Shown here in pieces: positions 745 to 13,988 of a stretch of DNA of 64,000 bases (positions within the stretch are counted from its first letter, which is position 1; each line of letters opens with the position of its first letter). Position numbers and translations under genes: made by a program. Origin of the DNA: Lentisphaerota bacterium (lineage in GTDB: Bacteria; Verrucomicrobiota; Kiritimatiellia; CAIQIC01; JAGNIJ01); contig JBPOJF010000006.1 in NCBI GenBank assembly GCA_052033915.1, forward strand, positions 275,544 through 339,543, read 5' to 3'. The notes beneath the pieces were generated by a model. It searched no databases. It worked only from the letters and a program-made list of their open reading frames with translations, and had not been told where the DNA came from.

Positions 745-2316
745 ATGAGAATGGAGCACGGGCAACACGTGTTATTCATGAAGCGGACAGCGCACAAACA
801 ATCCATGGTCTTGATGATCGCCGGCGCGGTCCTGGCTGTCACGGCTTCCCGGGGCGCGATTTCCCCCGAACCGCCGCCCAACGTTCCGCTGCCTCCGCCT
901 CTGATGACAACCGCTTTCGTGCGGGTCACGGTGCCCTGGATCGCCGTCCCCATCCAGAGCCCCCCGGTAACCTGCGAGGTGGGCAGCCACGTGATGTTGA
1001 TCCAGGAAAACGACGACTTCTTCATCACGATGTGCAGCAACCGGCATGCAGGGACCTTCCTGGCCGCCTTCCCCGCCAACACGCGGGCGGGCCGTCCGGC
1101 CTGGACCACGCCTGAGGAGAAGGTCTTCTTCGCGTACCGGACCACGTCGTGCCGCGGAACGTTGTACTTCAAACAGGGCGACGAACTGCCCGTGGACGCC
1201 CAGACGCGCAACGGGTACAAGGTCCGGCTGGAACGGTTCGGGCATGCCTTTCTTCTGTATCTGTCCCGAACCAATTCGGGCGTCGAGTTTTTTGCCGCCC
1301 CTCCGCCGCCAACCCCCGCACAGGTCGCCCATATCAAAGCCGGTCAGAAGGCGGCGACGACAGCGGTCCCCAAAACGCCAACCTCATCTTCGCCAAAGTT
1401 GTCTGCCGACTCACCTCCGCGCCCACCCCCCGTGAAGAGGTACATCGTCACTCCCGTGGGCCCCTCCACGAATGTATACACCATCGAGTTGTTGCCGCCC
1501 GACGTTTCGACCTCCACCACGGCAAAGGCGGATGGCAGTCTTATCACGCGCCTGTTCTCGAAGACCGAAAAGCCCGCCGTGGCCGCTTCTGAAAAACCGG
1601 CCCCCCCCAGGTCAACCGAAACGCCGGCCGAAAAGCCCGAGCCGGCTCAAAAGGAAGCGCCTGCGCTCGCCGACAAGGGGCCGGAGCCGCCGCCGACTCC
1701 GAAGACAGACATCAAGACGCTCTTCTCGATGTACAAAATACCGGTGCTGGCCGGGGCCTCTCTCCTCGTCCTCGTGGGTGCCCTTCTGTTGAAACGCCGG
1801 GAAAAGAACGCCCGGCCGGAAACGGAAGGGAAGACGCCCGGCGACACCGTGACGGCAGGGGCCACCTCTACGTCCACCACCCCGGGTACGCTCAACGATT
1901 TCTCGGGGTCCATCGCCTCCATGTCACTCGGCTCGGTGACGCAGTTCCTGAATTCGGACAAGGAAACGGGCACGCTCGTCATCAGGGACAAGGACAACGC
2001 GGAACTGGGAACGCTGATCTTCATCAAAGGCGAGATTGTCGACGCCCGCTCCCCCAAGAATCGGGGGCTGGACGCTCTGTACGAGGTGTTGAGACACAAG
2101 GAAGGGTTCTTCTCCTTCCTGCGTGAGGAACCCACGAACGTGGAGAAAACGATTACGCAAGGCACGATCTCGCTGCTGCTGGAGGCCCACAGAATCATGG
2201 ACGAGGAAGTGTCGCCGACGTCCCCGTCACCGCCCCTCCCTCCCGCAGCCGCCCCCAAACCGCGGCTCGCGGCCCCGAAGCCGGTCACCAAGCTTAAGCT
2301 CCACGGTAACCGCTGA
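745..2316 (+). CDS. Secreted/transmembrane protein with a C-terminal DUF4388 (PATAN-like) domain
   Basis: An N-terminal signal-like segment (MKRTAHKQSMVLMIAGAVLAVTA) is followed by a periplasmic domain of unknown function, a Pro/Thr/Ser-rich linker, one TM helix (YKIPVLAGASLLVLVGALLL), and a cytoplasmic DUF4388-like segment. That segment reads GSVTQFLNSDKETGTLVIRDKDNAELGTLIFIKGEIVDARSPKNRGLDALYEVLRHKEGFFSFL. The start may instead be the ATG at 778. Confidence 0.6.
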   Translation: MRMEHGQHVLFMKRTAHKQSMVLMIAGAVLAVTASRGAISPEPPPNVPLPPPLMTTAFVRVTVPWIAVPIQSPPVTCEVGSHVMLIQENDDFFITMCSNRHAGTFLAAFPANTRAGRPAWTTPEEKVFFAYRTTSCRGTLYFKQGDELPVDAQTRNGYKVRLERFGHAFLLYLSRTNSGVEFFAAPPPPTPAQVAHIKAGQKAATTAVPKTPTSSSPKLSADSPPRPPPVKRYIVTPVGPSTNVYTIELLPPDVSTSTTAKADGSLITRLFSKTEKPAVAASEKPAPPRSTETPAEKPEPAQKEAPALADKGPEPPPTPKTDIKTLFSMYKIPVLAGASLLVLVGALLLKRREKNARPETEGKTPGDTVTAGATSTSTTPGTLNDFSGSIASMSLGSVTQFLNSDKETGTLVIRDKDNAELGTLIFIKGEIVDARSPKNRGLDALYEVLRHKEGFFSFLREEPTNVEKTITQGTISLLLEAHRIMDEEVSPTSPSPPLPPAAAPKPRLAAPKPVTKLKLHGNR

Positions 2317-4522
2317 ACCGGCGGCCAAGAGCCACGCCCAGTCCGACAACAATCTGGATATGGCGGCGCGACAGTCCCTTGGGATTGTGGACCGCGACGA
2401 AGCAGATATCCTCGCTCTCCACAAACGTGAAGGAGTGCCCCTCATGGAAGACCGTCACGGAGTACGTCTCGGTCGAACTGATGTGCCGCATGTAATGTTT
2501 GACCTTCTTGAGGATCTGCGGCGCCATCGCCTGGACGCGCTCGGGCGATTCGACACGCCAGCTCGTGGCCAGCAGATCGCCGTCGCGGTGCAGAATGATG
2601 CATCCCTCGAATCCCGCAATCTGCCTGAACTTCTCCGCGACATCCTCCAGGCGCGGATGCTTCCCGCTCCACCGGCCCAACAGTTCGTCCACCAAGGCCA
2701 GTTGGCCGTACTTCTCCTCGAGCCATGGCTGGCCGGTGATCCTCTCGTAAATCTTCTCGCCGATACCCGGAACACGGCCCAGATCGTAGAGTCCGAAGAA
2801 GGGGCCGTGCTCCTTCCGGTTCTCCACGATCCGGTGGGCCATCGCATCGCCGATTCCATCGATCACACGCGTCAACTCCTCGGCAGTAGCCTGGTTCAAA
2901 TCCAACCCTCTTAAGAGAAGCTCGGGGACACCCGACAGGTTGGCGGGCGCGTGAATCGGCGCGGCAACCGGCGGCGGCTCCACTTTCGCTACGGGGGGTT
3001 GTGCCGGCGGCATGGCGACCGGCGCAGGCTTCTCCACTTTCGCCGCGGGCGGTTGCGGCGGCGGAGCCGCCGTGCTGCCGGCAACCAGATCCATCGGCAT
3101 GAACTTCTTCGGGGCCGGACCGCCAAAAGCCACGGGCGCTTCGACCGGCGGAGCCGTGGGCGCAACGGGTTTGGGTGCAGGCGCAACCGGCGCAGGGGCA
3201 GCGGGCTTGGGCACCGGTGCGATTGGCGCTACCGGCGGGGGCGCGGGCTTGGACACCGTCGGTGTGGGAGCATCGGGTTTTGGCGCGGGCGCGATCGGTG
3301 CGGACGGCGGAGGCGCAGGCTTGGATACCGCCGGCGCGGGAGCATCGGGTTTTGGCGCGGGCGCGATCGGTGCGGACGGCGGAGGCGTGGGCTTGGACAC
3401 CGCCGGTGTGGGAGCAACGGGTTTTGGCGCAGGCGCGGGCTTGGACGCAGCCTGCGCGGGAGCCGGTTCCGCGAGCTTGAACAAGTCGGGCAAATCATGA
3501 ACGGCCGACTTCGTGGGCACTTCGGCGGTTCGTTTCTTCAATTCATCCGGCGGAATGGCCGCGACCACAATCGATAACGGCAAGGTGACAAGTTCTTCGG
3601 AATCCGCCTTGGCGCCGGCGGAGAGATACGTCTTGGGAACAGCCGCCAGCAATTTGTTCATCGGCAACTTGACGGAGCCTTTCGCAAGCTGTTCAAAGAT
3701 CTCGTCCATTACGACATCCACCCTGGCATCCGGTGGAACCATCGCCGACTTGAATGTCGAGGGCAGCACGGCCTTCAACTCGGAGATCTTCAGGTTCAGC
3801 GTGACGGATTCCGCGGGCTTCGCAGTCGAAGCCGCGGGTTTTTCCGCCGCGGATGCCGATGCGGCTGCGGGCGCTGCCGGAGCGGCGGAGGGGCTGACCT
3901 TGAAGAGGTTCGGAAGTTCAGACGCGATCCGGTCCTGCCGGATGCTGCCGGTTCGCTTCTTCAACTCCGCCGGATCAACGGCGGCGACCACTGCGGCCAG
4001 CGGCAGCAGAACCTTCATCTCGCTCTTGGTTTCGGCGGGATTGGCGAGGTACTGCCGGGGAACACCGGCCAACAGGTAGCCCAGCGTTGTTTCGATCTTC
4101 CCCTTGGCCATCTGATCGAACAAATCCTCGATCACCACGTCCGCCTTCTCTCCCGATACCGCCTTGGCATCCACAAAGGAAGAGGGAACCACCTCGGCGA
4201 TATCGCGAAGGCTCATGGCCACCGTCTGAAGGCGATCCGAAGACCCGGAGTCATCGGAAGGCGGCACCACCGAGGATTCGGCCATCAGAGTTTCGATCTG
4301 CTGAAGAGCCGCGACAATTTCCTCCAATTGCATCGGCTTTTCACGCGGCGGAGGGGGCGCGCTCACAGCGGTTTTTTGGGTGGAAGGCGCAGCAACCTGC
4401 GGCGGAGGCGCCGTCACGGGAGCCGCAGGAGCACGAGACTCCTTGGGGTCCTCTTTCTTCTCCGCGCGTCCTTTGAAGATGCTTCCAAACAGGGCCATTT
4501 TTCCCGCCTGAGAGAGGCTCAC
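2294..4522 (-). CDS. Proline-rich multi-domain scaffold protein. It has a duplicated approximately 100-aa module, a ComEA-like helix-hairpin-helix, and a C-terminal Roadblock/LC7 (MglB/MglC-like) domain
   Basis: 742 aa. Two internal repeats are VPSSFVDAKAVSGEKADVVIEDLFDQMAKGKIETTLGYLLAGVP... and LPSTFKSAMVPPDARVDVVMDEIFEQLAKGSVKLPMNKLLAAVP.... A 3x Pro-rich repeat (APAPKPDAPAPAVSKPAPPPSAPI) follows. The HhH segment reads LNQATAEELTRVIDGIGDAMAHRIVENRKEHGPFFGLYDLGRVPGIGEKIYERITG. The C-terminal segment EGCIILHRDGDLLATSW...YSVTVFHEGHSFTFVESEDICFVAVHNP fits the Roadblock fold pattern. Confidence 0.65.
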   Translation of the reverse strand: MSLSQAGKMALFGSIFKGRAEKKEDPKESRAPAAPVTAPPPQVAAPSTQKTAVSAPPPPREKPMQLEEIVAALQQIETLMAESSVVPPSDDSGSSDRLQTVAMSLRDIAEVVPSSFVDAKAVSGEKADVVIEDLFDQMAKGKIETTLGYLLAGVPRQYLANPAETKSEMKVLLPLAAVVAAVDPAELKKRTGSIRQDRIASELPNLFKVSPSAAPAAPAAASASAAEKPAASTAKPAESVTLNLKISELKAVLPSTFKSAMVPPDARVDVVMDEIFEQLAKGSVKLPMNKLLAAVPKTYLSAGAKADSEELVTLPLSIVVAAIPPDELKKRTAEVPTKSAVHDLPDLFKLAEPAPAQAASKPAPAPKPVAPTPAVSKPTPPPSAPIAPAPKPDAPAPAVSKPAPPPSAPIAPAPKPDAPTPTVSKPAPPPVAPIAPVPKPAAPAPVAPAPKPVAPTAPPVEAPVAFGGPAPKKFMPMDLVAGSTAAPPPQPPAAKVEKPAPVAMPPAQPPVAKVEPPPVAAPIHAPANLSGVPELLLRGLDLNQATAEELTRVIDGIGDAMAHRIVENRKEHGPFFGLYDLGRVPGIGEKIYERITGQPWLEEKYGQLALVDELLGRWSGKHPRLEDVAEKFRQIAGFEGCIILHRDGDLLATSWRVESPERVQAMAPQILKKVKHYMRHISSTETYSVTVFHEGHSFTFVESEDICFVAVHNPKGLSRRHIQIVVGLGVALGRRFSGYRGA
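3178..3450. repeat. Approximately 72-bp tandem repeat (about 3.5 copies) encoding the Pro/Ala-rich linker of the scaffold protein
   Basis: Units begin near 3245, 3317 and 3389 (gggcttggacaccg..cggtgtgggagcatcgggttttggcgcgggcgcgatcggtgcggacggcggaggcg). A degenerate copy sits at 3178-3244. The repeat is in frame on the minus strand. Confidence 0.7.
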
Positions 4523-4633
4523 CGCCGCCGATTCGTCCGCCTCGCCGAACGACGCGCGAACCGGAACTGGAAGACGACTCTACCGACGGCTCAAAACCCG
4601 CTCATCTTTTTTACAACTTTATAATACAGATGT

Positions 4634-4662
4634 TTTACACAGTTGTGTAGTTTGTATATAGT
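4634..4662 (+). promoter_or_regulatory. Candidate sigma70-type promoter for mglAB (TTTACA, 17-nt spacer, TATAGT) with an overlapping inverted repeat TACACA-gt-TGTGTA (4636-4649), inside a strongly AT-rich island (about 4596-4690)
   Basis: Read directly from the sequence. It is a lone AT-rich stretch in an otherwise GC-rich window and lies 50 nt upstream of the mglA ATG. Confidence 0.4.
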
Positions 4663-4710
4663 TATTAAGACAGTATCGCTGCTCGGGTCCAAGGTAAGGA
4701 TGGGTGCGTA

Positions 4711-5358
4711 ATGTCTTTTATCAATTTTGCGCGCAAGGAAATCTCGTTCAAGATCGTCTACTATGGAACGGCCTTGGGCGGGAAGACGACAAACGTCGAA
4801 CAGATTCACGCCGGTATTTCCCCTCAATCCCGAGGAGAACTGACCACGCTGTCCACCAAGCAGGACCGGACGCTGTTCTTCGACTTTCTCCCCTTGAAGT
4901 CGGAGATCATCAAGGGCTTTGTGTCCAAGTTCCAGATTTACACTGTGCCCGGCCAGGTGATCTACAACGAAACCCGCAAACTGGTCTTGAGAAACGTGGA
5001 CGGCGTCGTTTTCGTGGCGGACTCCCAGTGGTCCAAGCAGGAGGAAAACGCCGCCAGCTTCGCCGACATGGAAGGCAACCTGAAGGACCAGGGCGATTCG
5101 CTCGACAGCATGCCGTACATCATCCAGTTCAACAAGCGCGACCTGCCGGATATCGCGCCCGCTCATTACATGAACTTCATGCTGAATCACCGTTCGGTGG
5201 CTGTGCCTTGTTTCGAGGCGGTGGCCGTTAAAGGGGTCGGGGTGCTGGAGTCGTTGAACATGATCGCGAAAATGGTCATCAGCAGTTTTATGCAGAAGAA
5301 CAAGATGGAGAGCACCGAGTTGCCAAGCGACCTGGCCGTTTCCCAGAAAGGTGTATGA
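4711..5358 (+). CDS. mglA: Ras-like small GTPase MglA
   Basis: MSFINFARKEISFKIVYYGTALGGKTTN...TLFFDFLPL...YTVPGQV...FVADSQ...IIQFNKRDLP. The P-loop, switch and NKRD motifs and the length (215 aa) match MglA family proteins almost motif for motif. Confidence 0.9.
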   Translation: MSFINFARKEISFKIVYYGTALGGKTTNVEQIHAGISPQSRGELTTLSTKQDRTLFFDFLPLKSEIIKGFVSKFQIYTVPGQVIYNETRKLVLRNVDGVVFVADSQWSKQEENAASFADMEGNLKDQGDSLDSMPYIIQFNKRDLPDIAPAHYMNFMLNHRSVAVPCFEAVAVKGVGVLESLNMIAKMVISSFMQKNKMESTELPSDLAVSQKGV

Positions 5359-5849
5359 CAATGTTCAGCGCTTTAAGCGAAGATGCCAGCCAGAACATCA
5401 ACCAGGTTCTCAGGGAACTCCTGGAGCAGGTGGAAGCCGAGGCCGTCTTTTTTTGCGACCGGGGCGGCAACATCATCGCCAGCCAGTCCGTCAACCAGCA
5501 GGACAACGAGGAGAATGTCGCGGCGCTGGCCGCGGGATCGTTCTTCGCCACCCTCACCATGGCGAAACTCGTAGGCGAAACGGAATTCCAGAACATGCTC
5601 CACCAGGGCGAGAAGACCAGTATTTACATGGAAGGGCTGAAGGGCGACATGATCCTGGTGGTCATCTTCAGCAAGGATTCGAATCCCGGACTCGTGAAGC
5701 TCTACGCCAAAACGGCCTGCCAGCAGCTTGAACCGTTCAAGCTCTCGCTGGTCTACGACGAGAAGCAGATGCGGACCATCCCGCACATGGAAGTGAGCCC
5801 GGGCGCCGAGGCGTTCAAAGCCAACAAGCCTTCGCCAAAAAAGAACTGA
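5355..5849 (+). CDS. mglB: Roadblock/LC7 GTPase-activating protein MglB
   Basis: It overlaps the mglA stop (ATGA). The 164-aa Roadblock domain (VFFCDRGGNIIASQS...AALAAGSFFATLTMAKLVGE...SIYMEGLKGDMILVVIF) has a C-terminal acidic/disordered tail, as in MglB. Confidence 0.85.
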   Translation: MTMFSALSEDASQNINQVLRELLEQVEAEAVFFCDRGGNIIASQSVNQQDNEENVAALAAGSFFATLTMAKLVGETEFQNMLHQGEKTSIYMEGLKGDMILVVIFSKDSNPGLVKLYAKTACQQLEPFKLSLVYDEKQMRTIPHMEVSPGAEAFKANKPSPKKN

Positions 5850-5856
5850 GCCCGGG

Positions 5857-6534
5857 TCAACCCGCCGCGAGTTCCCTCATCCGTTTCAGCAGGCCGGCGG
5901 ACGCCGCATGCGTGGAAGGCTCAAGTCGTTCCGGATGCCACTGGACCCCAAGCAGCGGTGCCCGCAATCCCGTCCCCTCGACGGCTTCAACAACCCCCTG
6001 CCTCGACAACGCCGCGATGCGCAATCCCGCACCGACGGACCCGGGATCGACAGCCTGATGATGCGCGCTGTTGACCTCGATGACCGGCTCGAAAACACCC
6101 GCCAGTTCCGTGCCGCTGACCAGGGCGATCGGATGAACGGCGTCCTTTCCGTTGGAGCGTTCGTGAGACTCGGCGGCGCCCGCGATCAACGGCACGTGCT
6201 GGATCAGCCGCCCGCCGAGCGCGACGTTCAGGATCTGAATCCCGCGGCAGACACCGAAAACCGCCTTCCCGCCGTCCATGAACCGACGAATGAGCCGACA
6301 TTCCATTTCGTCGCGCGCGGGGTCGATCTCCTGCGTTTCAGGAGCGCGAATCGCGCCGTATCGCGCGGGGTCAACATCCCCCCCGCCCGTCAGCATCAAG
6401 GCGTTAAACGCGGAGAGATCGCCGGGCATGGAATCGGAAGGACGGATCACCGCGCTCTCGATGCCCGCGCCCGACAACCAGGCCAGGTAGCCTTTCGGAT
6501 TCCCGCCGGCCGCACTGGTGACAAGCCATTTCAT
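5857..6534 (-). CDS. Class I glutamine amidotransferase (gamma-glutamyl-GABA hydrolase / peptidase C26-like)
   Basis: GVCRGIQILNVALGG (Cys nucleophile context) and HH...WHPE motifs, 225 aa. Confidence 0.8.
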   Translation of the reverse strand: MKWLVTSAAGGNPKGYLAWLSGAGIESAVIRPSDSMPGDLSAFNALMLTGGGDVDPARYGAIRAPETQEIDPARDEMECRLIRRFMDGGKAVFGVCRGIQILNVALGGRLIQHVPLIAGAAESHERSNGKDAVHPIALVSGTELAGVFEPVIEVNSAHHQAVDPGSVGAGLRIAALSRQGVVEAVEGTGLRAPLLGVQWHPERLEPSTHAASAGLLKRMRELAAG

Positions 6535-6560
6535 AATGAGACCTTGACGACGCGAACATC

Positions 6561-7217
6561 ATGACAGAAATTGCGGATAACATGAATATTAAAACCGTGA
6601 CGGTCGGCGCCTACGAAGAGAACTGCCATGTGATCTGGGACGAGCGGCTCAACGCCCTTGTCATCGATCCGGGCGCGAATCCGGAACGCATCGAGAAGGT
6701 CATCCAGGCCCACCGTCTGAAGGTGGTCGCTTTCCTCATCACACACGGCCATGCGGATCACATCGGCGCGCTGCCGGCCCTGCACACCTCCCATCCCGCC
6801 CCGGTGGCCATCAGCCATGAGGATGCGGTCTGGGCATTCTCGCCGGTCAACCAGCTTCCCCCTCACTACCCTCCGCTGACATCGCCGCCGGAGGTTTCCC
6901 GGGTTCTGACGGACGGGCAGGAATGGAAAGATGGCGAATTGCTCTACCGGGTGATCTCCACACCCGGCCACAGCCCCGGCTGTGTGTGCTTCTATTTTCC
7001 GGACGCTCACGCCGTGTTCACGGGCGACACGCTTTTCCAGTCGTCGGTCGGCCGGACCGATCTGCCGGGAGGCAATGCCCGCGCGCTGACCGAGTCGCTG
7101 AAGAAACTCATGGCTCTGCCCGACGACACCCGGGTCTTTCCGGGGCACGGGCCCGAAACCACCATCGGGATCGAGAAGAGAACGAATTACTTTCTGAGGC
7201 GCGACAACAGGCCGTAG
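6561..7217 (+). CDS. MBL-fold metallo-hydrolase (glyoxalase II-like)
   Basis: THGHADHIGAL metal-binding motif, with downstream PGHSPG and GDTLF motifs. The start may instead be the ATG at 6582. Confidence 0.8.
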   Translation: MTEIADNMNIKTVTVGAYEENCHVIWDERLNALVIDPGANPERIEKVIQAHRLKVVAFLITHGHADHIGALPALHTSHPAPVAISHEDAVWAFSPVNQLPPHYPPLTSPPEVSRVLTDGQEWKDGELLYRVISTPGHSPGCVCFYFPDAHAVFTGDTLFQSSVGRTDLPGGNARALTESLKKLMALPDDTRVFPGHGPETTIGIEKRTNYFLRRDNRP

Positions 7218-7229
7218 CGGACAGCGGCG

Positions 7230-8453
7230 TCACTTTTCGAATGACAGCTTGATGCCGCGGCGAACAAAGGTTGGAATATCCAAATCCTCCCCGGCATAAA
7301 GGGTCGGTTCGATGTTCTTGAAGCGGCCCTTGTCGCCTGTGTCAAAATTCAACGTGGACTGGATCGCGCGGGCGCCCGAGGGCATCGCAGCCTTGCTTCC
7401 CGTCCGCAGCTCAGGGGCCAACCCTTCAACCACCTTTTCAGGAAATCCTGCCGCCGGCTCGGGGACATCGCCCTCGCCGGTCCAGCTTTCGGCGGCCAGC
7501 ACCGTCAGCGTGAGCCGGTTCTGCCAGGCCTCGTCCACCGTCGCCCCCATGAACAGTTTGACACCGGGTCGGGCGACCGCGGTCAACTGGGACATGATGT
7601 TCTGCACGTCGAGCAACGTCAGGTCCGGACCTCCGTTGATGCTGACCATCAGCGCCCCTGCCTGCGAGAGGATGCGGCCGCGATCCAGCAGAGGGCTCTT
7701 CATCAGTTCCGAGACGGCCGCCGACGCTTTGGCCGTACCCGTTCCCTCGCCGTAACCGAAGGAGCACCCGCCTCCGCTGTGCTCCACGAGGTGGCGCAAA
7801 TCGGCAAAATCCAGGTTGATGATTCCGGTCTTGGACAGCAGTTTCCACAGCGAGCGCACGCCCACGCCCAGCATGACATCCGCCTTGCCGAACGCGTCCA
7901 CCAGGCCGGTCCGGGTTTCCACCAGTTCCAGCAAGCGCTGGTTCGGCAGGGTAATGACCACATCGGCCTGCATCCTCAAGGCGCGCAGTCCCTCTTCGGC
8001 ATGCCGCGTTTTCAACTCTCCCTCAAAATCGAAAGGGGTCGTGGCAAAACACAGGGTCATGGCGCCCTGCTCGCGGGCGATGCGGGCCATGATGGGCGCG
8101 GCGCCGGTTCCCGTTCCACCGCCCAGCGCGGCCACGATCACGACAAGGTCCGCCTGCGAAACCAGTTCCCGCAGCGAGTCGCCGTCATCCTCGGCGGCCA
8201 GCTTGCCTACCGCCGGATCGCCCCCCGCCCCAAGTCCCTGCGTGATGCCCTTCCCGATCTGAACCCGGACCGGCACGCGGCAGGCGGAAAGCGCCTGACT
8301 GTCCGTGTTGACTGCGGCGACCGCAGGACCATCAGACCACCCGGCGTGCATCCGGGCCACGGCATTGCTGCCGCCGCCGCCGAGCCCCACAACCAGCATC
8401 CGGCTTCCTTTCGCCGCGCCGACTACCGCCGCATGGTCTGTTGATTCAAGCAT
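7230..8453 (-). CDS. ftsZ: Cell division protein FtsZ
   Basis: GGGGSNAV, the tubulin signature GGGTGTG, NTDSQAL and C-terminal DIPTFVRRG conserved peptide. The start is placed at MLESTDHAAVVG (ATG 8451-8453). The longer ORF reaching 8678 overlaps ftsA in another frame. Confidence 0.9.
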   Translation of the reverse strand: MLESTDHAAVVGAAKGSRMLVVGLGGGGSNAVARMHAGWSDGPAVAAVNTDSQALSACRVPVRVQIGKGITQGLGAGGDPAVGKLAAEDDGDSLRELVSQADLVVIVAALGGGTGTGAAPIMARIAREQGAMTLCFATTPFDFEGELKTRHAEEGLRALRMQADVVITLPNQRLLELVETRTGLVDAFGKADVMLGVGVRSLWKLLSKTGIINLDFADLRHLVEHSGGGCSFGYGEGTGTAKASAAVSELMKSPLLDRGRILSQAGALMVSINGGPDLTLLDVQNIMSQLTAVARPGVKLFMGATVDEAWQNRLTLTVLAAESWTGEGDVPEPAAGFPEKVVEGLAPELRTGSKAAMPSGARAIQSTLNFDTGDKGRFKNIEPTLYAGEDLDIPTFVRRGIKLSFEK

Positions 8454-8455
8454 AT

Positions 8456-9661
8456 CTATTTCCCGAAAATACCTTTGAGGATGCCCAGGACGGATTTTCT
8501 TTCCCGCTCCTTCTGCTCCATGGCCTTGAGGCCATACCGGGCCATGCCCACGATGGCCGCATATTCCGGCGCTTCCGTGACGACGGCCAACCCCGCCACT
8601 CCGCGGGGCTTTCCGACACGGCAAGGCAGGCCAAACACCTTCTCCGCGAGCTTGACGATATTCTTCATGTGCGCGCAACCACCGGCAAGGACCACGCCCC
8701 CGCCGAGCGAGTGAAGAAGGTTCTTCTCCAGCAACTCCGTCTTGACCAGGTTCAGGGTCTCTTCCATTCGCAAGTGGGTGATGGTATGAAGGTCGGACAC
8801 CTTCACGGCGCGCTCCGCCAGGCCCGATTCGGCCGGCAGGGCGACTTTCTGCGATCGAGCGGCCATTTCAACCAGCGCGCTCCCATACTCCTCTTTCAGC
8901 CGCTCGGCCTCGGCCATGGGAATCCGCAACCCGCGCGCGATATCGTTGGTGGCATGATCGCCGCCCACCCCGAAAGACCCCGCCGCGGCAATCGCGTTGT
9001 GCGCATACACGACGTAATCCGTCGTGCCGCCGCCCAGGTCGATGACGACGCTGCCGGCCTCCTTGTCCTCGGCCGTCAGCACCGCCAGGGCCGCGCAAAG
9101 CCCTCCGAACGCCACATCCTCCACATCCACCTGCACGCTCCGGACCACCTTGACGACGTTCCGCAGGCGCATGAGCAGTCCGTGGATGATCAGCATGTCC
9201 ACGGACAGCTTGGCCCCCTCCATGCCTTCGGGATCGATCACGCCTTCCTGGTCATCCACGTGGAAGTATTGGCAAATCGTGTGCAGGACCTGGCGGTCCG
9301 TCGGCAGGTTGACCGCGCGAGCGGTCGCCATCACGTGATCGATATCCGACTCCGTGATTTCCTTTCGGGAGTTCATGATCGGCACGCTGCCGCGATTGAC
9401 CAGACTCGTGATGTGGCCTCCGGAGACCACGAGATGAATCTGGTTGATGATGACCCGGCCGTTTTCCTCCGCGAGCCGGAGCGCTTCGCGGACACACGCC
9501 ACGGCGTTGTCGAAATCGACAATCTCGCCCTTGCGCACGCCGCGGGAGGGACACTCTCCCAGGCCCGTGATCATCAAGTGGCCGTCGGCCCGCGATTCAC
9601 CGATCACGGCGCGAACCACGGTCGTTCCGATTTCCAAAGCAACAATCAGCGGAAGATTCAT
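8456..9661 (-). CDS. ftsA: Cell division protein FtsA
   Basis: Actin-like ATPase motifs (VALEIGTTVVRAV, DLGGGTTD, VVLAGGCAHM). It sits between ftsQ and ftsZ. Confidence 0.9.
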   Translation of the reverse strand: MNLPLIVALEIGTTVVRAVIGESRADGHLMITGLGECPSRGVRKGEIVDFDNAVACVREALRLAEENGRVIINQIHLVVSGGHITSLVNRGSVPIMNSRKEITESDIDHVMATARAVNLPTDRQVLHTICQYFHVDDQEGVIDPEGMEGAKLSVDMLIIHGLLMRLRNVVKVVRSVQVDVEDVAFGGLCAALAVLTAEDKEAGSVVIDLGGGTTDYVVYAHNAIAAAGSFGVGGDHATNDIARGLRIPMAEAERLKEEYGSALVEMAARSQKVALPAESGLAERAVKVSDLHTITHLRMEETLNLVKTELLEKNLLHSLGGGVVLAGGCAHMKNIVKLAEKVFGLPCRVGKPRGVAGLAVVTEAPEYAAIVGMARYGLKAMEQKERERKSVLGILKGIFGK

Positions 9662-9683
9662 AACCCAACCAGAGGGAAGTCCG

Positions 9684-10550
9684 TCACTGGTACTGCACCG
9701 GGAAGTTCTTGTCCACGGTCATGTCAATAGCGGCAATCGCCTGACCCATGTCGGCTGTATGTTTCATGATTTCACAAAGTTTCGCCAGCTTCACATCCAC
9801 GTTCTCGCGCGACAGCAGGATGCGCTCTCCCCTCTGCAGAGACACCTCGAGATACTCCGGATGGCTGACGTCCACGTTCTTGATCCTTAAAAACCGGCTG
9901 AAGGAGGGCGAGTCGCAGACATCGAGGATATGCAGGGCGTTCTGCACTCCGGGATCGCCCACTCGGGCGCCCGGCCGCAGACCTTTCTCCTGCAGGCCGG
10001 TGATCGACGGGAGCTGTTGGGACACCGACGTGGGGCCCAGCACAAAGCCGGCCTGGTCCACGGCCAGCGGATAGCCGGTGCTTTCCTCGCCCAGCCGCGC
10101 CGCGGGAATGCGTTCCGAAACCGTGACCTCGAGAGTGTCGGGGAGCTTGCGCCGCACACTGACGGCGCTGACGATCGGCACGCTCATCAGGTCGTCGCGC
10201 ACCTGGCCGAGATCGATCTCAAACAGGTTCATCCCCTCGTCAATATGCGCGTACTCGCGGATATGCTCGGACTGGAGCTTGCCGTTTGAACGGAGATGGA
10301 GATTCCGGATGGTGAAGCGCGGGTTCCGGGAGAAGAGGGACTGGCCGATGAGTTTCGTCCCCAGCAACGTCATCCAGATGGTTCCCGCGACGACAACCGT
10401 CACGAGGAGAATGGCCCCGACGCGGTGCGCGCGCTCCCTGCGCTGATCCCTCAGGCGCGCGCGGACCATCAGGATGGAATTGCGCCGGTTCTCCCGGCGG
10501 TTGCCGAACAACTTGCGGTTCGAGTACTTGTTGTCGTCGCGATACCACAT
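9684..10550 (-). CDS. ftsQ: Cell division protein FtsQ (POTRA domain)
   Basis: Single N-proximal TM (VGAILLVTVVVAGTIW) followed by a POTRA-like region. Position between ddl and ftsA. Confidence 0.75.
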   Translation of the reverse strand: MWYRDDNKYSNRKLFGNRRENRRNSILMVRARLRDQRRERAHRVGAILLVTVVVAGTIWMTLLGTKLIGQSLFSRNPRFTIRNLHLRSNGKLQSEHIREYAHIDEGMNLFEIDLGQVRDDLMSVPIVSAVSVRRKLPDTLEVTVSERIPAARLGEESTGYPLAVDQAGFVLGPTSVSQQLPSITGLQEKGLRPGARVGDPGVQNALHILDVCDSPSFSRFLRIKNVDVSHPEYLEVSLQRGERILLSRENVDVKLAKLCEIMKHTADMGQAIAAIDMTVDKNFPVQYQ

Positions 10551-10568
10551 AAGTCAATCACTCCGCGT

Positions 10569-11465
10569 TCAATGTACACAGGCCATGCGGATAATTCGAT
10601 CACAAAGCTCCGGAAACTCGATCCCCATGGCGCGCGCCGCCTTGGGCAGAAGACTCGTCTCCGTAAAGCCGGGGATGTTGTTCAACTCGAGCACAAACAG
10701 CCCGCCGTCCGGCGTCAGCCGGAAATCCACGCGGCCCATGTCCCGGCAGTCCAGCGCCTGGAAGGTCCGTTGCGCCAGCCGCCGGCATTCCGCGACGCAT
10801 TCGCCGGGAATATCCGCGGGCACGATGTACTGCGTCAACCCCTTCGTGTACTTCGCCTGATAATTGTAAAATCCATCCGGCGCCTTGATTTCAAGCACCG
10901 GCAGAACATCTCCACCCACCACTCCGACCGTCAGTTCACGGCCGGCGATGAAGGCCTCGACCAGCACCTCGCCGTCATGTGTCAACGCCTCCTCCAGCGC
11001 AACGGGCCAATCCGCCTCATCGGAAACAATATGAACACCAATGCTGGACCCCTGCCGGATCGGTTTCACGACCGCGGGGAGCGGCAGGGATCTGCCCTGT
11101 CCTTTCCTGAGAATCTCGTACTTCGGCGTCGGAATGCCGTTCTCCACAAAGGTCTTCTTGCTCAGAAGCTTGTCGAACGACCGCCGGCTGGCCTCCGGCC
11201 CGGAACCCGTGTACGGGATTCCGCGCGTCCGCAGGATTTCCTGTATCTGCCCGTCCTCCCCGAATTCGCCGTGCAACGCGACAAAAACCGCCTCGATCCC
11301 GTCCGGCAGTTCCAGTTCGCGCCCTTGGAGATCAATCTCGGCAACGTCGTAGCCCACGCTCCGAAGCGCCTCCGCCACGGCCCGGCCCGAGTTCAGGGAG
11401 ACTTCCCGCTCCGACGACGGCCCACCCATTAAAACGCCCACTTTCTTGAAACGTCTTTGTGTCAT
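10569..11465 (-). CDS. ddl: D-alanine--D-alanine ligase
   Basis: GVLMGGPSSEREVS, VALHGEFGEDG, PAVVKP..GSS and VLELNNIPG ATP-grasp motifs. Confidence 0.9.
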   Translation of the reverse strand: MTQRRFKKVGVLMGGPSSEREVSLNSGRAVAEALRSVGYDVAEIDLQGRELELPDGIEAVFVALHGEFGEDGQIQEILRTRGIPYTGSGPEASRRSFDKLLSKKTFVENGIPTPKYEILRKGQGRSLPLPAVVKPIRQGSSIGVHIVSDEADWPVALEEALTHDGEVLVEAFIAGRELTVGVVGGDVLPVLEIKAPDGFYNYQAKYTKGLTQYIVPADIPGECVAECRRLAQRTFQALDCRDMGRVDFRLTPDGGLFVLELNNIPGFTETSLLPKAARAMGIEFPELCDRIIRMACVH

Positions 11466-12904
11466 ATGTTCTCGTTGTTCCTTGTCGCGTATTCGTCACG
11501 CGCCCAACCCGCGATCTTCTCCACGTCGCCCGCCCCGATCACGAGCAGCACGTCGCCCGCCCCGATCTTTGCCTTCACATATCGCCACGCCTCGTCGAGG
11601 GATAAAAGATAGCGGGTCGGCACCTGCCCGAACGACTGAAAATGCCCGAAGAGATCCTCCGATGTCCCGCCCTCGAGAGGCGACTCGGAGGCTTCATAGA
11701 CGGGGACAAGAACCAGTTCGTCCAAACCCGCGAACGCGGGCGGAAAGGCCTTCCCGAGCGCCCGCGTCCGGGTGTAGCGGTGCGGCTGGAAGACCCCGAT
11801 CAACCGTCGCCCTCCGCACTGCATGGTCGTCCTGACGAGCGCCTGGATTTCCGTCGGATGATGCGCGTAGTCGGAAATCACCAGCAGGTCCTTGCGATCA
11901 ACCACCTTCTCAAAACGACGCCGCGCGTGCGTGAAGGTTGCCAGACCCGCGCAAACCCGGCCAAAGGACAATCCCAGTTCCATCGCGGCGGCGCACGCGC
12001 CCAATGCGTTGAGCAGGTTGTGGCGGCCCGGCACGGGCAGGGAGAGCGCGCCAAGTTCCGCCCCCTTCAAAAGGACGTTCGCGCGAATCCGCGAAGACGT
12101 CTCTTCGATCTCCGTCCCGCGAAGATGTGACGGCGCGGACAGCCCGTACGAAAAACCCTTCGGGTTCTTCCCGCACACCGCCGCGGCGCGCGGATCATCC
12201 GCACAGTAAACGATCCGCCGCCGCACGCCGTCGGCAAACATCTGGAAGCAGCCGACCAACATTTCCTCGTCGCGGAAATGCTCCATGTGATCGTATTCAA
12301 TATTCGTAATCACTCCGACGTCCGGCTCGTACAGGATCAATGTCCCGTCGCTTTCGTCGGCCTCCACAACAAGCACCCGGCCCGCGCCGGCCGCGGCGAC
12401 TCCGCCGAGGGAGGGGATTTCGCCGCCGATGCAGAAGCCCGGCTCCAGGCCGCTCATCGCCAGCACATGGGCGATCATCGCGGAAGTCGTTGTCTTGCCG
12501 TGTGTCCCTGTGACCGCCACGGACGTCCGCCCCTCCAGCAGGGCCGGCAACACCGCGCCCCGCGGGTAAACGGGAATGCCCGCCTTTTTCGCCGCGAGGA
12601 TTTCGCCGCTGTCGTCCGGAACCGCCGTGCTCTTCACCAGCCAGCCGGTATCGGGGGCAAGATGCGATGGGCTGTGCCCGCAGAAAACGTTCACGCCGCC
12701 GGACGCGAGCGCCTCGCTCACACGGTTCGGGACAAGGTCGCAGCCGGTGACGCGAAACCCGTGGGCGGCAAGGTGCACGGCGATGCCGGCCATGCCGATG
12801 CCGGCAACGCCGACGAGATGAACGTGTCCCGGACAGCCGGACAGAAGCCGGCGGATTTCGGCGACCTGTTTGCGGCCGGATTCAAGGTTACACAGTGCGG
12901 CCAT
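11462..12904 (-). CDS. murC: UDP-N-acetylmuramate--L-alanine ligase
   Basis: VHLVGVAGIGMAGIA and TGTHGKTTTSAM Mur-ligase motifs. It overlaps ddl by 4 nt. Confidence 0.9.
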   Translation of the reverse strand: MAALCNLESGRKQVAEIRRLLSGCPGHVHLVGVAGIGMAGIAVHLAAHGFRVTGCDLVPNRVSEALASGGVNVFCGHSPSHLAPDTGWLVKSTAVPDDSGEILAAKKAGIPVYPRGAVLPALLEGRTSVAVTGTHGKTTTSAMIAHVLAMSGLEPGFCIGGEIPSLGGVAAAGAGRVLVVEADESDGTLILYEPDVGVITNIEYDHMEHFRDEEMLVGCFQMFADGVRRRIVYCADDPRAAAVCGKNPKGFSYGLSAPSHLRGTEIEETSSRIRANVLLKGAELGALSLPVPGRHNLLNALGACAAAMELGLSFGRVCAGLATFTHARRRFEKVVDRKDLLVISDYAHHPTEIQALVRTTMQCGGRRLIGVFQPHRYTRTRALGKAFPPAFAGLDELVLVPVYEASESPLEGGTSEDLFGHFQSFGQVPTRYLLSLDEAWRYVKAKIGAGDVLLVIGAGDVEKIAGWARDEYATRNNENI

Positions 12905-13988
12905 ATTCTCCGTTCCCGACCTGAATGACCAGCGAAGCCAGGGATTCGGCGGCGCTTTGCATGGCGCGCGACCGCGATACGGCGCTCATCCGGGCCAGCC
13001 TGCCCGGCGTCTGCATGCAGCCCACGATGTAATCCGTCAGCCACGGCAGGCTCAAGTCCCGCTCGGGAACCACGTCGGCCGCTCCGGCTTTCTCCATCGC
13101 CCGCGCATTGACCATCTGGTGGTTCTTGGTGGCCTCCGGGTACGGCACCAGCAGGGCCGGCACGGCAAAGTCCAGCAGTTCCGCGCATGTCGAAGCGCCT
13201 GATCGGCAGATGGCGATATCCGCCGCCGCATAGACGGGGGCCATGTCCTGTTCGAAAGCGGAAACCACGGCATTCACCCCCGTATCCCGGTACGCCTTGC
13301 GGATCGTCGCCTCATCGGCAACGCCGGTGAGATGAATCACCCGGATGCGGTGCCCGCCCTTGTGGATCAGGATGACCGCGGCGGACACCAGATCGTTCAG
13401 CCGGTGGGCGCCGCGGCTTCCGCCCATCACGAGGAGGGTAAAGATGTCCCGGCCCGTCTCGTGCGGCGGAATGGTCCTGGCGGCCTTCTCGAGTTCCTTC
13501 CGGATCGGCATGCCCGTCACGACGATGTCCTTGCGGCGAAGGTAGAAACGCGTCTCCTCGAAGCTCCCCGCCACGGCCGTCGCCCACCGGGAGAACAGGG
13601 AAATCGTCCGCCCCGGCAGAACGTTCGCCTCGTGAAGCACGACGGGAATTCCAAGGGAAAGGGCCGCACACACGGGCCCGACCGACGCATAGCTGCCCAT
13701 CGCGAGAAGGACATCCGGGCGGTCCGGCCGCATGATCCGCCGGCAGGACTGCGCGGCACGAAGAAGCCGCCAGGCCGCGCGCACCGCGCGAAGGGAAAAG
13801 CCGGAGGGAAGCCCCTCGGCCTGCACCGTCACCACCGGGCCGGCCCAATCCTTTACGGCAGGCGTCTCAACGTCCTTCCCTGCCAGCCACAGAGTAATAT
13901 CGTGGCCGCGCTGTCTCAGACTGTCGGCCGTCGCCAATCCGGGAAAGATGTGGCCCCCGGTTCCGCCGCATGCTACTGCAATTTTCAA
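12888..13988 (-). CDS. murG: UDP-GlcNAc--undecaprenyl-PP-MurNAc-pentapeptide GlcNAc transferase
   Basis: MKIAVACGGTGGHIFPGLA N-terminal GT28 motif, with LVMGGSRGA C-terminal domain. Confidence 0.9.
   Translation of the reverse strand: MKIAVACGGTGGHIFPGLATADSLRQRGHDITLWLAGKDVETPAVKDWAGPVVTVQAEGLPSGFSLRAVRAAWRLLRAAQSCRRIMRPDRPDVLLAMGSYASVGPVCAALSLGIPVVLHEANVLPGRTISLFSRWATAVAGSFEETRFYLRRKDIVVTGMPIRKELEKAARTIPPHETGRDIFTLLVMGGSRGAHRLNDLVSAAVILIHKGGHRIRVIHLTGVADEATIRKAYRDTGVNAVVSAFEQDMAPVYAAADIAICRSGASTCAELLDFAVPALLVPYPEATKNHQMVNARAMEKAGAADVVPERDLSLPWLTDYIVGCMQTPGRLARMSAVSRSRAMQSAAESLASLVIQVGNGEYGRTV

Follow-up and report, generated by a model that had tools for sequence, protein, structure and literature searches.

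In a window of 64,000 nucleotides from a Lentisphaerota bacterium (assembly GCA_052033915.1, contig JBPOJF010000006.1, positions 275,544 to 339,543 of the forward strand; the coordinates below count from its first letter), we analysed a gene that encodes a large multi-domain protein, hereafter the scaffold, and that lies next to the genes of the Ras-like GTPase MglA and of MglB, its Roadblock GTPase-activating protein (GAP). MglA/MglB is the best-understood small-GTPase polarity switch of bacteria, and to our knowledge its accessory proteins RomR, RomX, RomY and MglC are known almost only from Myxococcus. From the conserved gene neighbourhood, profile searches and structure prediction we propose, with moderate confidence, that the scaffold is a soluble cytoplasmic third component of the MglA/MglB polarity module in Verrucomicrobiota and relatives. 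It is a long, largely flexible chain comprising, from the N- to the C-terminus, a hydrophobic peptide, two copies of a duplicated domain that we call the N-module, a proline-rich linker, a helix-hairpin-helix (HhH) domain, a connector and a Roadblock domain (Table 1).

Table 1. Features of the scaffold gene and of its immediate neighbours (positions in the window; residues numbered in the 742-residue reading frame; HMM, hidden Markov model; AF2, AlphaFold2; pLDDT, predicted local distance difference test)
Feature	Position	Strand	Details
Convergent PATAN (DUF4388) membrane-protein gene	745..2316	+	Pfam DUF4388 E 6e-16, aa 387-488
Scaffold open reading frame, as listed	2294..4522	-	742 aa, GTG start
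Probable true scaffold coding sequence	2294-4498	-	734 aa, ATG start
Roadblock/LC7-fold domain (predicted) with third helix	2315..2650	-	aa 625-736; MglB/LAMTOR type
Helical connector W-x-E-E-x-Y-G-Q-L...LLGRW	2678..2719	-	Links HhH to Roadblock; conserved in alignments, helical in the model
ComEA-type (HhH)2 domain	2732..2908	-	aa 539-597; Pfam HHH_3 E 2e-16
Pro/Ala/Lys-rich disordered linker	2924..3475	-	About 180 aa; 36% Pro, 26% Ala, net charge +7
Three full in-frame 72-bp copies (24-aa units)	3200..3415	-	A degenerate fourth copy follows
N-module copy 2	3476..3805	-	aa 240-349; HMM E 2e-43; AF2 pLDDT 80-87
N-module copy 1	3899..4231	-	aa 98-208; HMM E 4e-45; AF2 pLDDT about 90
Conserved helix QLEEIVAALQQIETLMAE	4277..4333	-	aa 64-82, ahead of the first N-module; conserved in the family alignment
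N-terminal peptide MALFGSIFKGR	4466..4498	-	Hydrophobic at i, i+1, i+4, i+5, then basic residues
Divergent intergenic region shared with mglA	4523..4710		188 bp, AT-richer, GC falls to 51%
mglA	4711..5358	+	215 aa, Ras-like GTPase; phmmer E 1e-59 to M. xanthus MglA structures; TVPGQ motif
mglB	5355..5849	+	164 aa, Roadblock GAP; start overlaps the mglA stop; Robl_LC7 2.8e-10

The tie to the MglA machinery, which the initial annotation had suspected from the Roadblock domain, is strongly supported by the conserved neighbourhood. The mglA gene, together with mglB wherever the contig reaches, adjoins the family gene in nine of ten distinct loci, the relatives being 24-83% identical. The family gene and mglA diverge in six loci (L001, L003, L007, L008, L009 and L010), as they do in the window, and run co-directionally in L006 and L011, where the scaffold gene stands directly upstream of mglA-mglB. 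Since the linkage to mglAB has been kept through such rearrangement, we take it as an argument for a functional tie. The identity of the second gene is clear from the match of its product to the M. xanthus MglB structures (2.6e-19) and to the NCBIfam MglB model (4e-20; 72.4 bits, below the curated cut-off of 200). Back-to-back sigma-70-like promoter sites occur at 4621-4662, and both of the sites found in the 3.9 kb scanned (0.5 expected) fall in the intergenic region between the scaffold gene and mglA; they are consensus matches only.

On its other side the scaffold gene meets a PATAN gene tail to tail, the two 3' ends overlapping by 23 bp (2294-2316). The PATAN protein combines its cytoplasmic PATAN/DUF4388 domain with two hydrophobic segments, one N-terminal and the other around aa 325-350. 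Seven of the distinct loci have adjacent PATAN genes; the neighbour is again convergent in L001, L002, L007 and L008, with overlapping ends in the first three and no overlap of the PATAN frame in L008 (3409 versus 3447). An association of MglB with PATAN genes has been noted earlier, in a survey that makes no mention of HhH (PMC4316618).

The C-terminal part of the scaffold (aa 528-742) was modelled with AF2 from a 16-sequence alignment, with a mean pLDDT of 84.9 and a predicted template-modelling score (pTM) of 0.78. In this model a helical HhH domain and two conserved connector helices precede an alpha-beta-beta-alpha-beta-beta-beta-alpha order (helices, H, and strands, E, in model numbering: H98-106, E111-118, E123-126, H133-154, E161-166, E169-176, E179-185, H192-209). 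The C-terminal domain is thereby predicted, with good confidence, to adopt the Roadblock fold. Foldseek comparison with the PDB gave the Thermus MglB structure 1j3w as best match (E 2.8e-5, probability 1.00), and further matches to Asgard Roadblock proteins, dynein LC7, LAMTOR subunits and M. xanthus MglB, with a TM-score, normalised by target length, of up to 0.79. Modelled order and Foldseek thus agree on the MglB-like Roadblock fold that had been proposed from the sequence, and a C-terminal part devoid of such a fold was not what we obtained. The single scaffold sequence scored 14.1 bits (E 0.039, cut-off 23) over aa 626-709 with the Pfam model Robl_LC7 (PF03259), and the family profile matched the solved Robl_LC7 protein 7f8f (E 6.6e-7). 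Because the two-domain model reaches the pTM given above, it also suggests that the HhH domain is held rigidly against the Roadblock domain by the conserved connector.

The resemblance to MglB raises the question of whether the scaffold might itself be an alternative, localised GAP, the Roadblock dimer of which would bind MglA by its two-helix face while the rest of the chain positions the GAP activity. Both proteins share the alpha-beta-alpha sandwich of the Roadblock fold with the third helix typical of MglB; the best structural matches of the scaffold are MglB structures, including that in the MglA-MglB transition-state complex (3t12_B), and its gene adjoins mglA. However, a canonical MglB is encoded beside mglA in the same loci, so that a second GAP appears unneeded. 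Moreover, the NCBIfam MglB model, which matches the neighbouring mglB product, does not match the scaffold, and the Roadblock domain aligns with the neighbouring MglBs in register (hhalign E 1.4e-4, probability 52%) at 17% identity, a distance that argues against its being a recent copy of MglB. The overall build differs as well, MglB being a single-domain protein of about 130-180 aa and the scaffold a multi-domain protein of 734 aa. We therefore regard a GAP function as unlikely, and retain the third component of the polarity module as the preferred reading.

Another explanation starts from the position of the gene near the division and cell-wall (dcw) cluster. The ftsZ gene ends 2.7 kb from the scaffold gene, the series murG-murC-ddl-ftsQ-ftsA-ftsZ follows, and an HhH domain could bind the nucleoid, so that the scaffold could act in cell division or nucleoid organisation, without relation to MglA, and owe its place to the ftsQ-ftsA-ftsZ genes. 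Yet two unrelated genes, for a C26 peptidase and a metallo-beta-lactamase-fold (MBL) hydrolase, lie between mglB and ftsZ; and while mglAB accompanies the gene elsewhere, none of the other loci examined has a dcw cluster beside it. We rejected dcw adjacency as a functional clue because it is not conserved in those loci, and consider such a division role highly improbable.

The HhH domain is a genuine ComEA-type domain and not a low-complexity match, as its assignment from the sequence alone had left to be checked: it scores 60 bits with Pfam HHH_3 (cut-off 27) and 50.2 bits with TIGR00426, marginally under the cut-off of 53.1. It can be aligned, residue for residue, with the ComEA DNA-binding domains (PDB 8dss and 8dfk), and it also aligns with EEPD1. 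Like ComEA, the scaffold has an (HhH)2 domain with both Gly-hydrophobic-Gly hairpins, and in 103 family sequences the glycines of the two hairpins are conserved at 92/77% and 97/70%, and the basic residues that follow the hairpins at 44-64%. In contrast to ComEA, the scaffold is devoid of a membrane anchor, stands in another genomic context, and has alanine for lysine after the first hairpin, a position that is lysine in the aligned ComEA proteins and basic in 44% of the family. We also weighed whether the net charge of the HhH domain speaks against DNA binding, and dropped the point after a manual residue count in which the ComEA segments were about equally acidic. The scaffold HhH domain may plausibly bind DNA; it is worth noting that PsbU of photosystem II was among the weak profile matches, showing that HHH_3-type domains occur in non-DNA contexts too.

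That the scaffold is a ComEA-like competence protein binding incoming DNA, as the alignment of its HhH domain with ComEA and the IMG annotation 'competence ComEA-like helix-hairpin-helix protein' would have it, is scarcely credible. No signal peptide or membrane segment giving a periplasmic location was found in the protein, and with the full-length comEA model TIGR01259 it reaches 42.9 bits where the cut-off is 152. The HhH domain accounts for about 60 of the 734 residues, and the Roadblock domain to which it is fused is of a cytoplasmic type. Around the gene lie mglA, mglB and PATAN genes, and neither comEC nor any other uptake gene is annotated in the loci examined. Moreover, HhH-less variants (P0020 and P0023) keep the N-modules and the Roadblock domain.

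The scaffold belongs to a family whose members share its build. Of 1.84 billion representatives, 494 matched a profile of the HhH-Roadblock region at E<1e-30. Among the best 150, about 95 contained the whole profile in one C-terminal stretch, in proteins of about 200-870 aa, some of them truncated. Among the retrieved sequences at least 80 cluster representatives carry the HhH-Roadblock region together with one to three N-modules and a linker, so the same fusion does recur in homologues; the family layout is an N-terminal hydrophobic peptide, one to three N-modules, a disordered linker of 36-400 aa, the HhH domain and the Roadblock domain. The scaffold shows all the features by which we define the family, namely the N-terminal motif, the N-modules, the linker, the HhH-connector-Roadblock region in one stretch and the adjacent mglA-mglB. 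Its architecture, which the initial annotation called unusual, is so with respect to curated databases and to the literature, where our search found no paper describing an HhH-Roadblock fusion; among genomes, the fusion represents a widespread and conserved family, judging from the retrieved sequences.

The few members of this family that carry a taxonomic label come from Verrucomicrobiota and Lentisphaeria: two Verrucomicrobiota metagenome-assembled genomes (MAGs), labelled through a genome scan with a 6-sequence alignment, and the Lentisphaeria protein P0019. In the most divergent locus, L006, release factor RF-1 is 80% identical to that of a Methylacidiphilales MAG. Separately, an N-module fragment (P0177) is labelled Methylomirabilota. 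The N-module is duplicated in several branches, with two copies in P0019, P0029 and P0036 and three in P0108. The HhH domain is missing from P0020 (681 aa) and P0023 (757 aa), from which we regard it as an added, optional module in a broader N-module/Roadblock superfamily. In L011 the family gene (6001-8048) appears as two frames, one of 205 aa with the N-module and one of 190 aa with HHH_3, separated by an opposite-strand call; the probable cause is a frameshift artefact in the long-read assembly, not a real split.

Family comparison also bears on the start of the gene. The open reading frame at 2294-4522 reported at first does exist, while its start codon has to be revised from GTG 4522 to, most likely, ATG 4498, for two reasons. 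First, in the family alignment the conserved N-terminus 'MALFGSIFKGR' starts at residue 9 of the 742-aa frame, and 49 of 79 family proteins have the corresponding motif M[AS][LF][LF]xx[LIF]F[KR] at residue 1. Second, a protein from a public assembly (P0001; 734 aa, 100% identical) was called from this ATG. The pattern of hydrophobic and basic residues leads us to infer that the N-terminal peptide is an amphipathic anchoring or binding motif. No transmembrane-like segment was found in the scaffold, its highest 19-residue hydropathy being 1.52 with no window above 1.6. Between the peptide and the first N-module, AF2 predicts the conserved helix QLEEIVAALQQIETLMAE at residues 58-74 of the model.

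The two N-modules share 40% identity over 111 aa (E 5e-27, BLASTP of one N-terminal half versus the other). The duplication of a domain of about 100 aa, initially placed at aa 113-210 and 254-352, is therefore real, with its boundaries shifted by the HMM to those of Table 1. The first copy ends with ...ELKKRT...LPNLF. An AF2 model of aa 9-356 is confident in the two modules only (pLDDT about 80-92), and each of them is modelled as four beta-strand/short-helix units followed by a longer terminal helix. A scan of 17 module sequences matched no Pfam family at E up to 10; Foldseek found no PDB relative (best E 1.0, with a two-module query whose disordered parts may reduce sensitivity); and a word-indexed search with the module profile returned fragments of the same family only, the frameshifted copy in L011 among them, and no new architectures. 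The N-module is thus uncharacterised and may be a new fold. We also observed that each module resembles four tandem sub-repeats of about 20-25 aa, each made of a beta strand and a short helix ending in proline, with the pattern h-x-L-P-h-x-x-h-h-x-x-h-P, which is clearest in P0021 (INLPIGMILRCLPPEVL / IGLPMQMILGQLPSG / MTLQELVPHFPPGYL / VNLPLMDVVMRIPPDLL); these sub-repeats would be a further repeat layer.

The linker that follows the N-modules is strongly gapped in the family alignment. Its length, from the last N-module to the HhH domain, has a median of 190 aa and a range of 36-400 aa in 80 proteins, and its character varies by clade: Pro/Ala/Lys-rich and basic in the clade of the scaffold, strongly acidic elsewhere, with a net charge down to -77. 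The presence of a linker is thus conserved without conservation of its sequence, which fits a spacer role. Within the scaffold linker lies a 72-bp tandem repeat, first described as three to four copies of a 24-aa repeat at 3178-3450. The repeat is real, and the count is now three full copies plus a degenerate one: with Tandem Repeats Finder the period is 72, with 3.5 copies and 83% matches at 3187-3437, and the full copies are 93/81/76% identical at the DNA level, with the unit APxPxVSKPxPPPxAPIAPxPKPx. No near-identical DNA was found in two exact-match scans of metagenome contigs, one with the repeat flank and one with the repeat unit.

The scaffold can be compared with the known components of polarity systems. 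Like MglC, it has a Roadblock fold and accompanies MglA and MglB without being a canonical GAP; unlike MglC, which is a small, single-domain protein, it carries its Roadblock domain at the end of a 734-aa chain, with an HhH domain before it. Like RomR, it combines a folded N-terminal part, a long proline-rich disordered region and a C-terminal part that engages (in the scaffold, would engage) Roadblock proteins, and both proteins have a genetic or functional tie to MglA/MglB. It differs from RomR, however, in having neither a receiver domain (no Response_reg match) nor a Glu-rich C-terminal helix; its N-modules are of another, uncharacterised fold, and its C-terminus is itself a Roadblock domain. 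With no receiver domain, and with no MglC structure among the top matches listed, the scaffold appears to belong to neither the RomR nor the MglC family.

A parallel can also be drawn with the eukaryotic Ragulator/LAMTOR-Rag system, in which Roadblock dimers, stacked under the Rag GTPases, tether a small-GTPase module to a site in the cell via a lipid-anchored flexible scaffold, and LAMTOR subunits are among the fold matches of our protein. In contrast, Ragulator is eukaryotic, multi-subunit and devoid of HhH; the likeness is one of design, and the homology shown is limited to the shared fold. The conceptual parallel between Ragulator and the Roadblock complexes of Myxococcus has been drawn before, in a study placing an MglC dimer between RomR and two MglB dimers, a contact that MglA-GTP breaks (PMC10329633).

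We propose the following mechanism for the scaffold. At one end, the Roadblock domain would dimerise and dock on the MglB dimer and/or offer a platform to MglA, a step suggested by what is known of Roadblock proteins, which serve small GTPases as dimeric platforms and stack upon each other. At the other end, the N-terminal peptide and the N-modules would attach the scaffold to the membrane or else to some partner with a defined location, for which the neighbouring PATAN-domain membrane protein is a candidate. The Pro/Ala/Lys linker of about 180 aa would be the flexible spacer bridging the two ends, and the HhH domain would provide a second binding activity, towards double-stranded DNA (the nucleoid) or towards a protein. 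The scaffold could thereby set where the GAP activity of MglB, and hence MglA-GTP, sits in the cell. The role that RomR plays with a folded domain and a disordered region, and that of MglC as a Roadblock adaptor, would then be joined in one chain. We think it possible, if rather doubtful, that the HhH domain binds the chromosome while the N-terminal peptide and modules hold a membrane or polar landmark, thereby coupling MglA/MglB to the nucleoid.

Several observations weigh against this proposal. First, one relative (L005) has no mglAB within about 5-8 kb. Second, the kinship between the Roadblock domain and the neighbouring MglBs is remote, as the 17% identity and the hhalign probability of 52% indicate. 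Third, no MglC structure was among the top sequence or fold matches listed, because of which the analogy with MglC is to be read as functional only. Fourth, the sole argument for the N-terminal peptide as a membrane anchor is its residue pattern, and AF2 models this peptide with low confidence and as no helix.

Further genes flank the module in several loci. Extra PATAN-domain genes occur at 7367-8590 in L001 (fused to a receiver domain) and at 5800-6534 in L003 (fused to an FHA domain), and L010 has a weak PatA_N gene (8123-9214) and, as a separate neighbour, a gene with guanylate-cyclase and FHA domains (9296-10444). Such PATAN, receiver and FHA neighbours suggest varied signalling inputs. 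In the clade that diverges most, mglB has Flp/Fap pilin genes immediately downstream (L006 11089-11604, L011 9637-9840), a hint that the module may there regulate Tad/Flp-type pili. In the window itself, mglB is followed at 5857-7217 by a peptidase C26/class-I glutamine amidotransferase gene (minus strand) and a metallo-beta-lactamase-fold hydrolase gene (plus strand), which intervene before ftsZ and were not seen beside the module in the other loci examined. Then comes, at 7230-13988 on the minus strand, the end of the division/cell-wall cluster, with murG, murC, ddl, ftsQ, ftsA and ftsZ assigned by Pfam. The listed ftsZ frame (482 aa, from a TTG) shares 223 bp with ftsA, and its tubulin domain starts only at residue 94; the gene itself probably begins further downstream than listed.

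These data have consequences for annotation and for the biology of the MglA/MglB switch. The automatic annotation 'ComEA-like competence protein' is misleading, and is corrected here. The family is a conserved, syntenic partner of MglA/MglB in a lineage other than that of Myxococcus and with a different build, a point relevant to studies of bacterial polarity and of how Roadblock/GTPase platforms evolved. As such it offers a candidate case of Roadblock-on-Roadblock stacking, as proposed above, outside Myxococcus and the eukaryotic Ragulator. Coupling to the nucleoid, if true, would be a hitherto unknown way of placing a bacterial Ras-like GTPase module, with the chromosome as the reference surface; ParA/MinD-type systems likewise use a reference surface for positioning. 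Together, these data make the family a concrete candidate for how Verrucomicrobiota and their relatives may localise the MglA/MglB switch.

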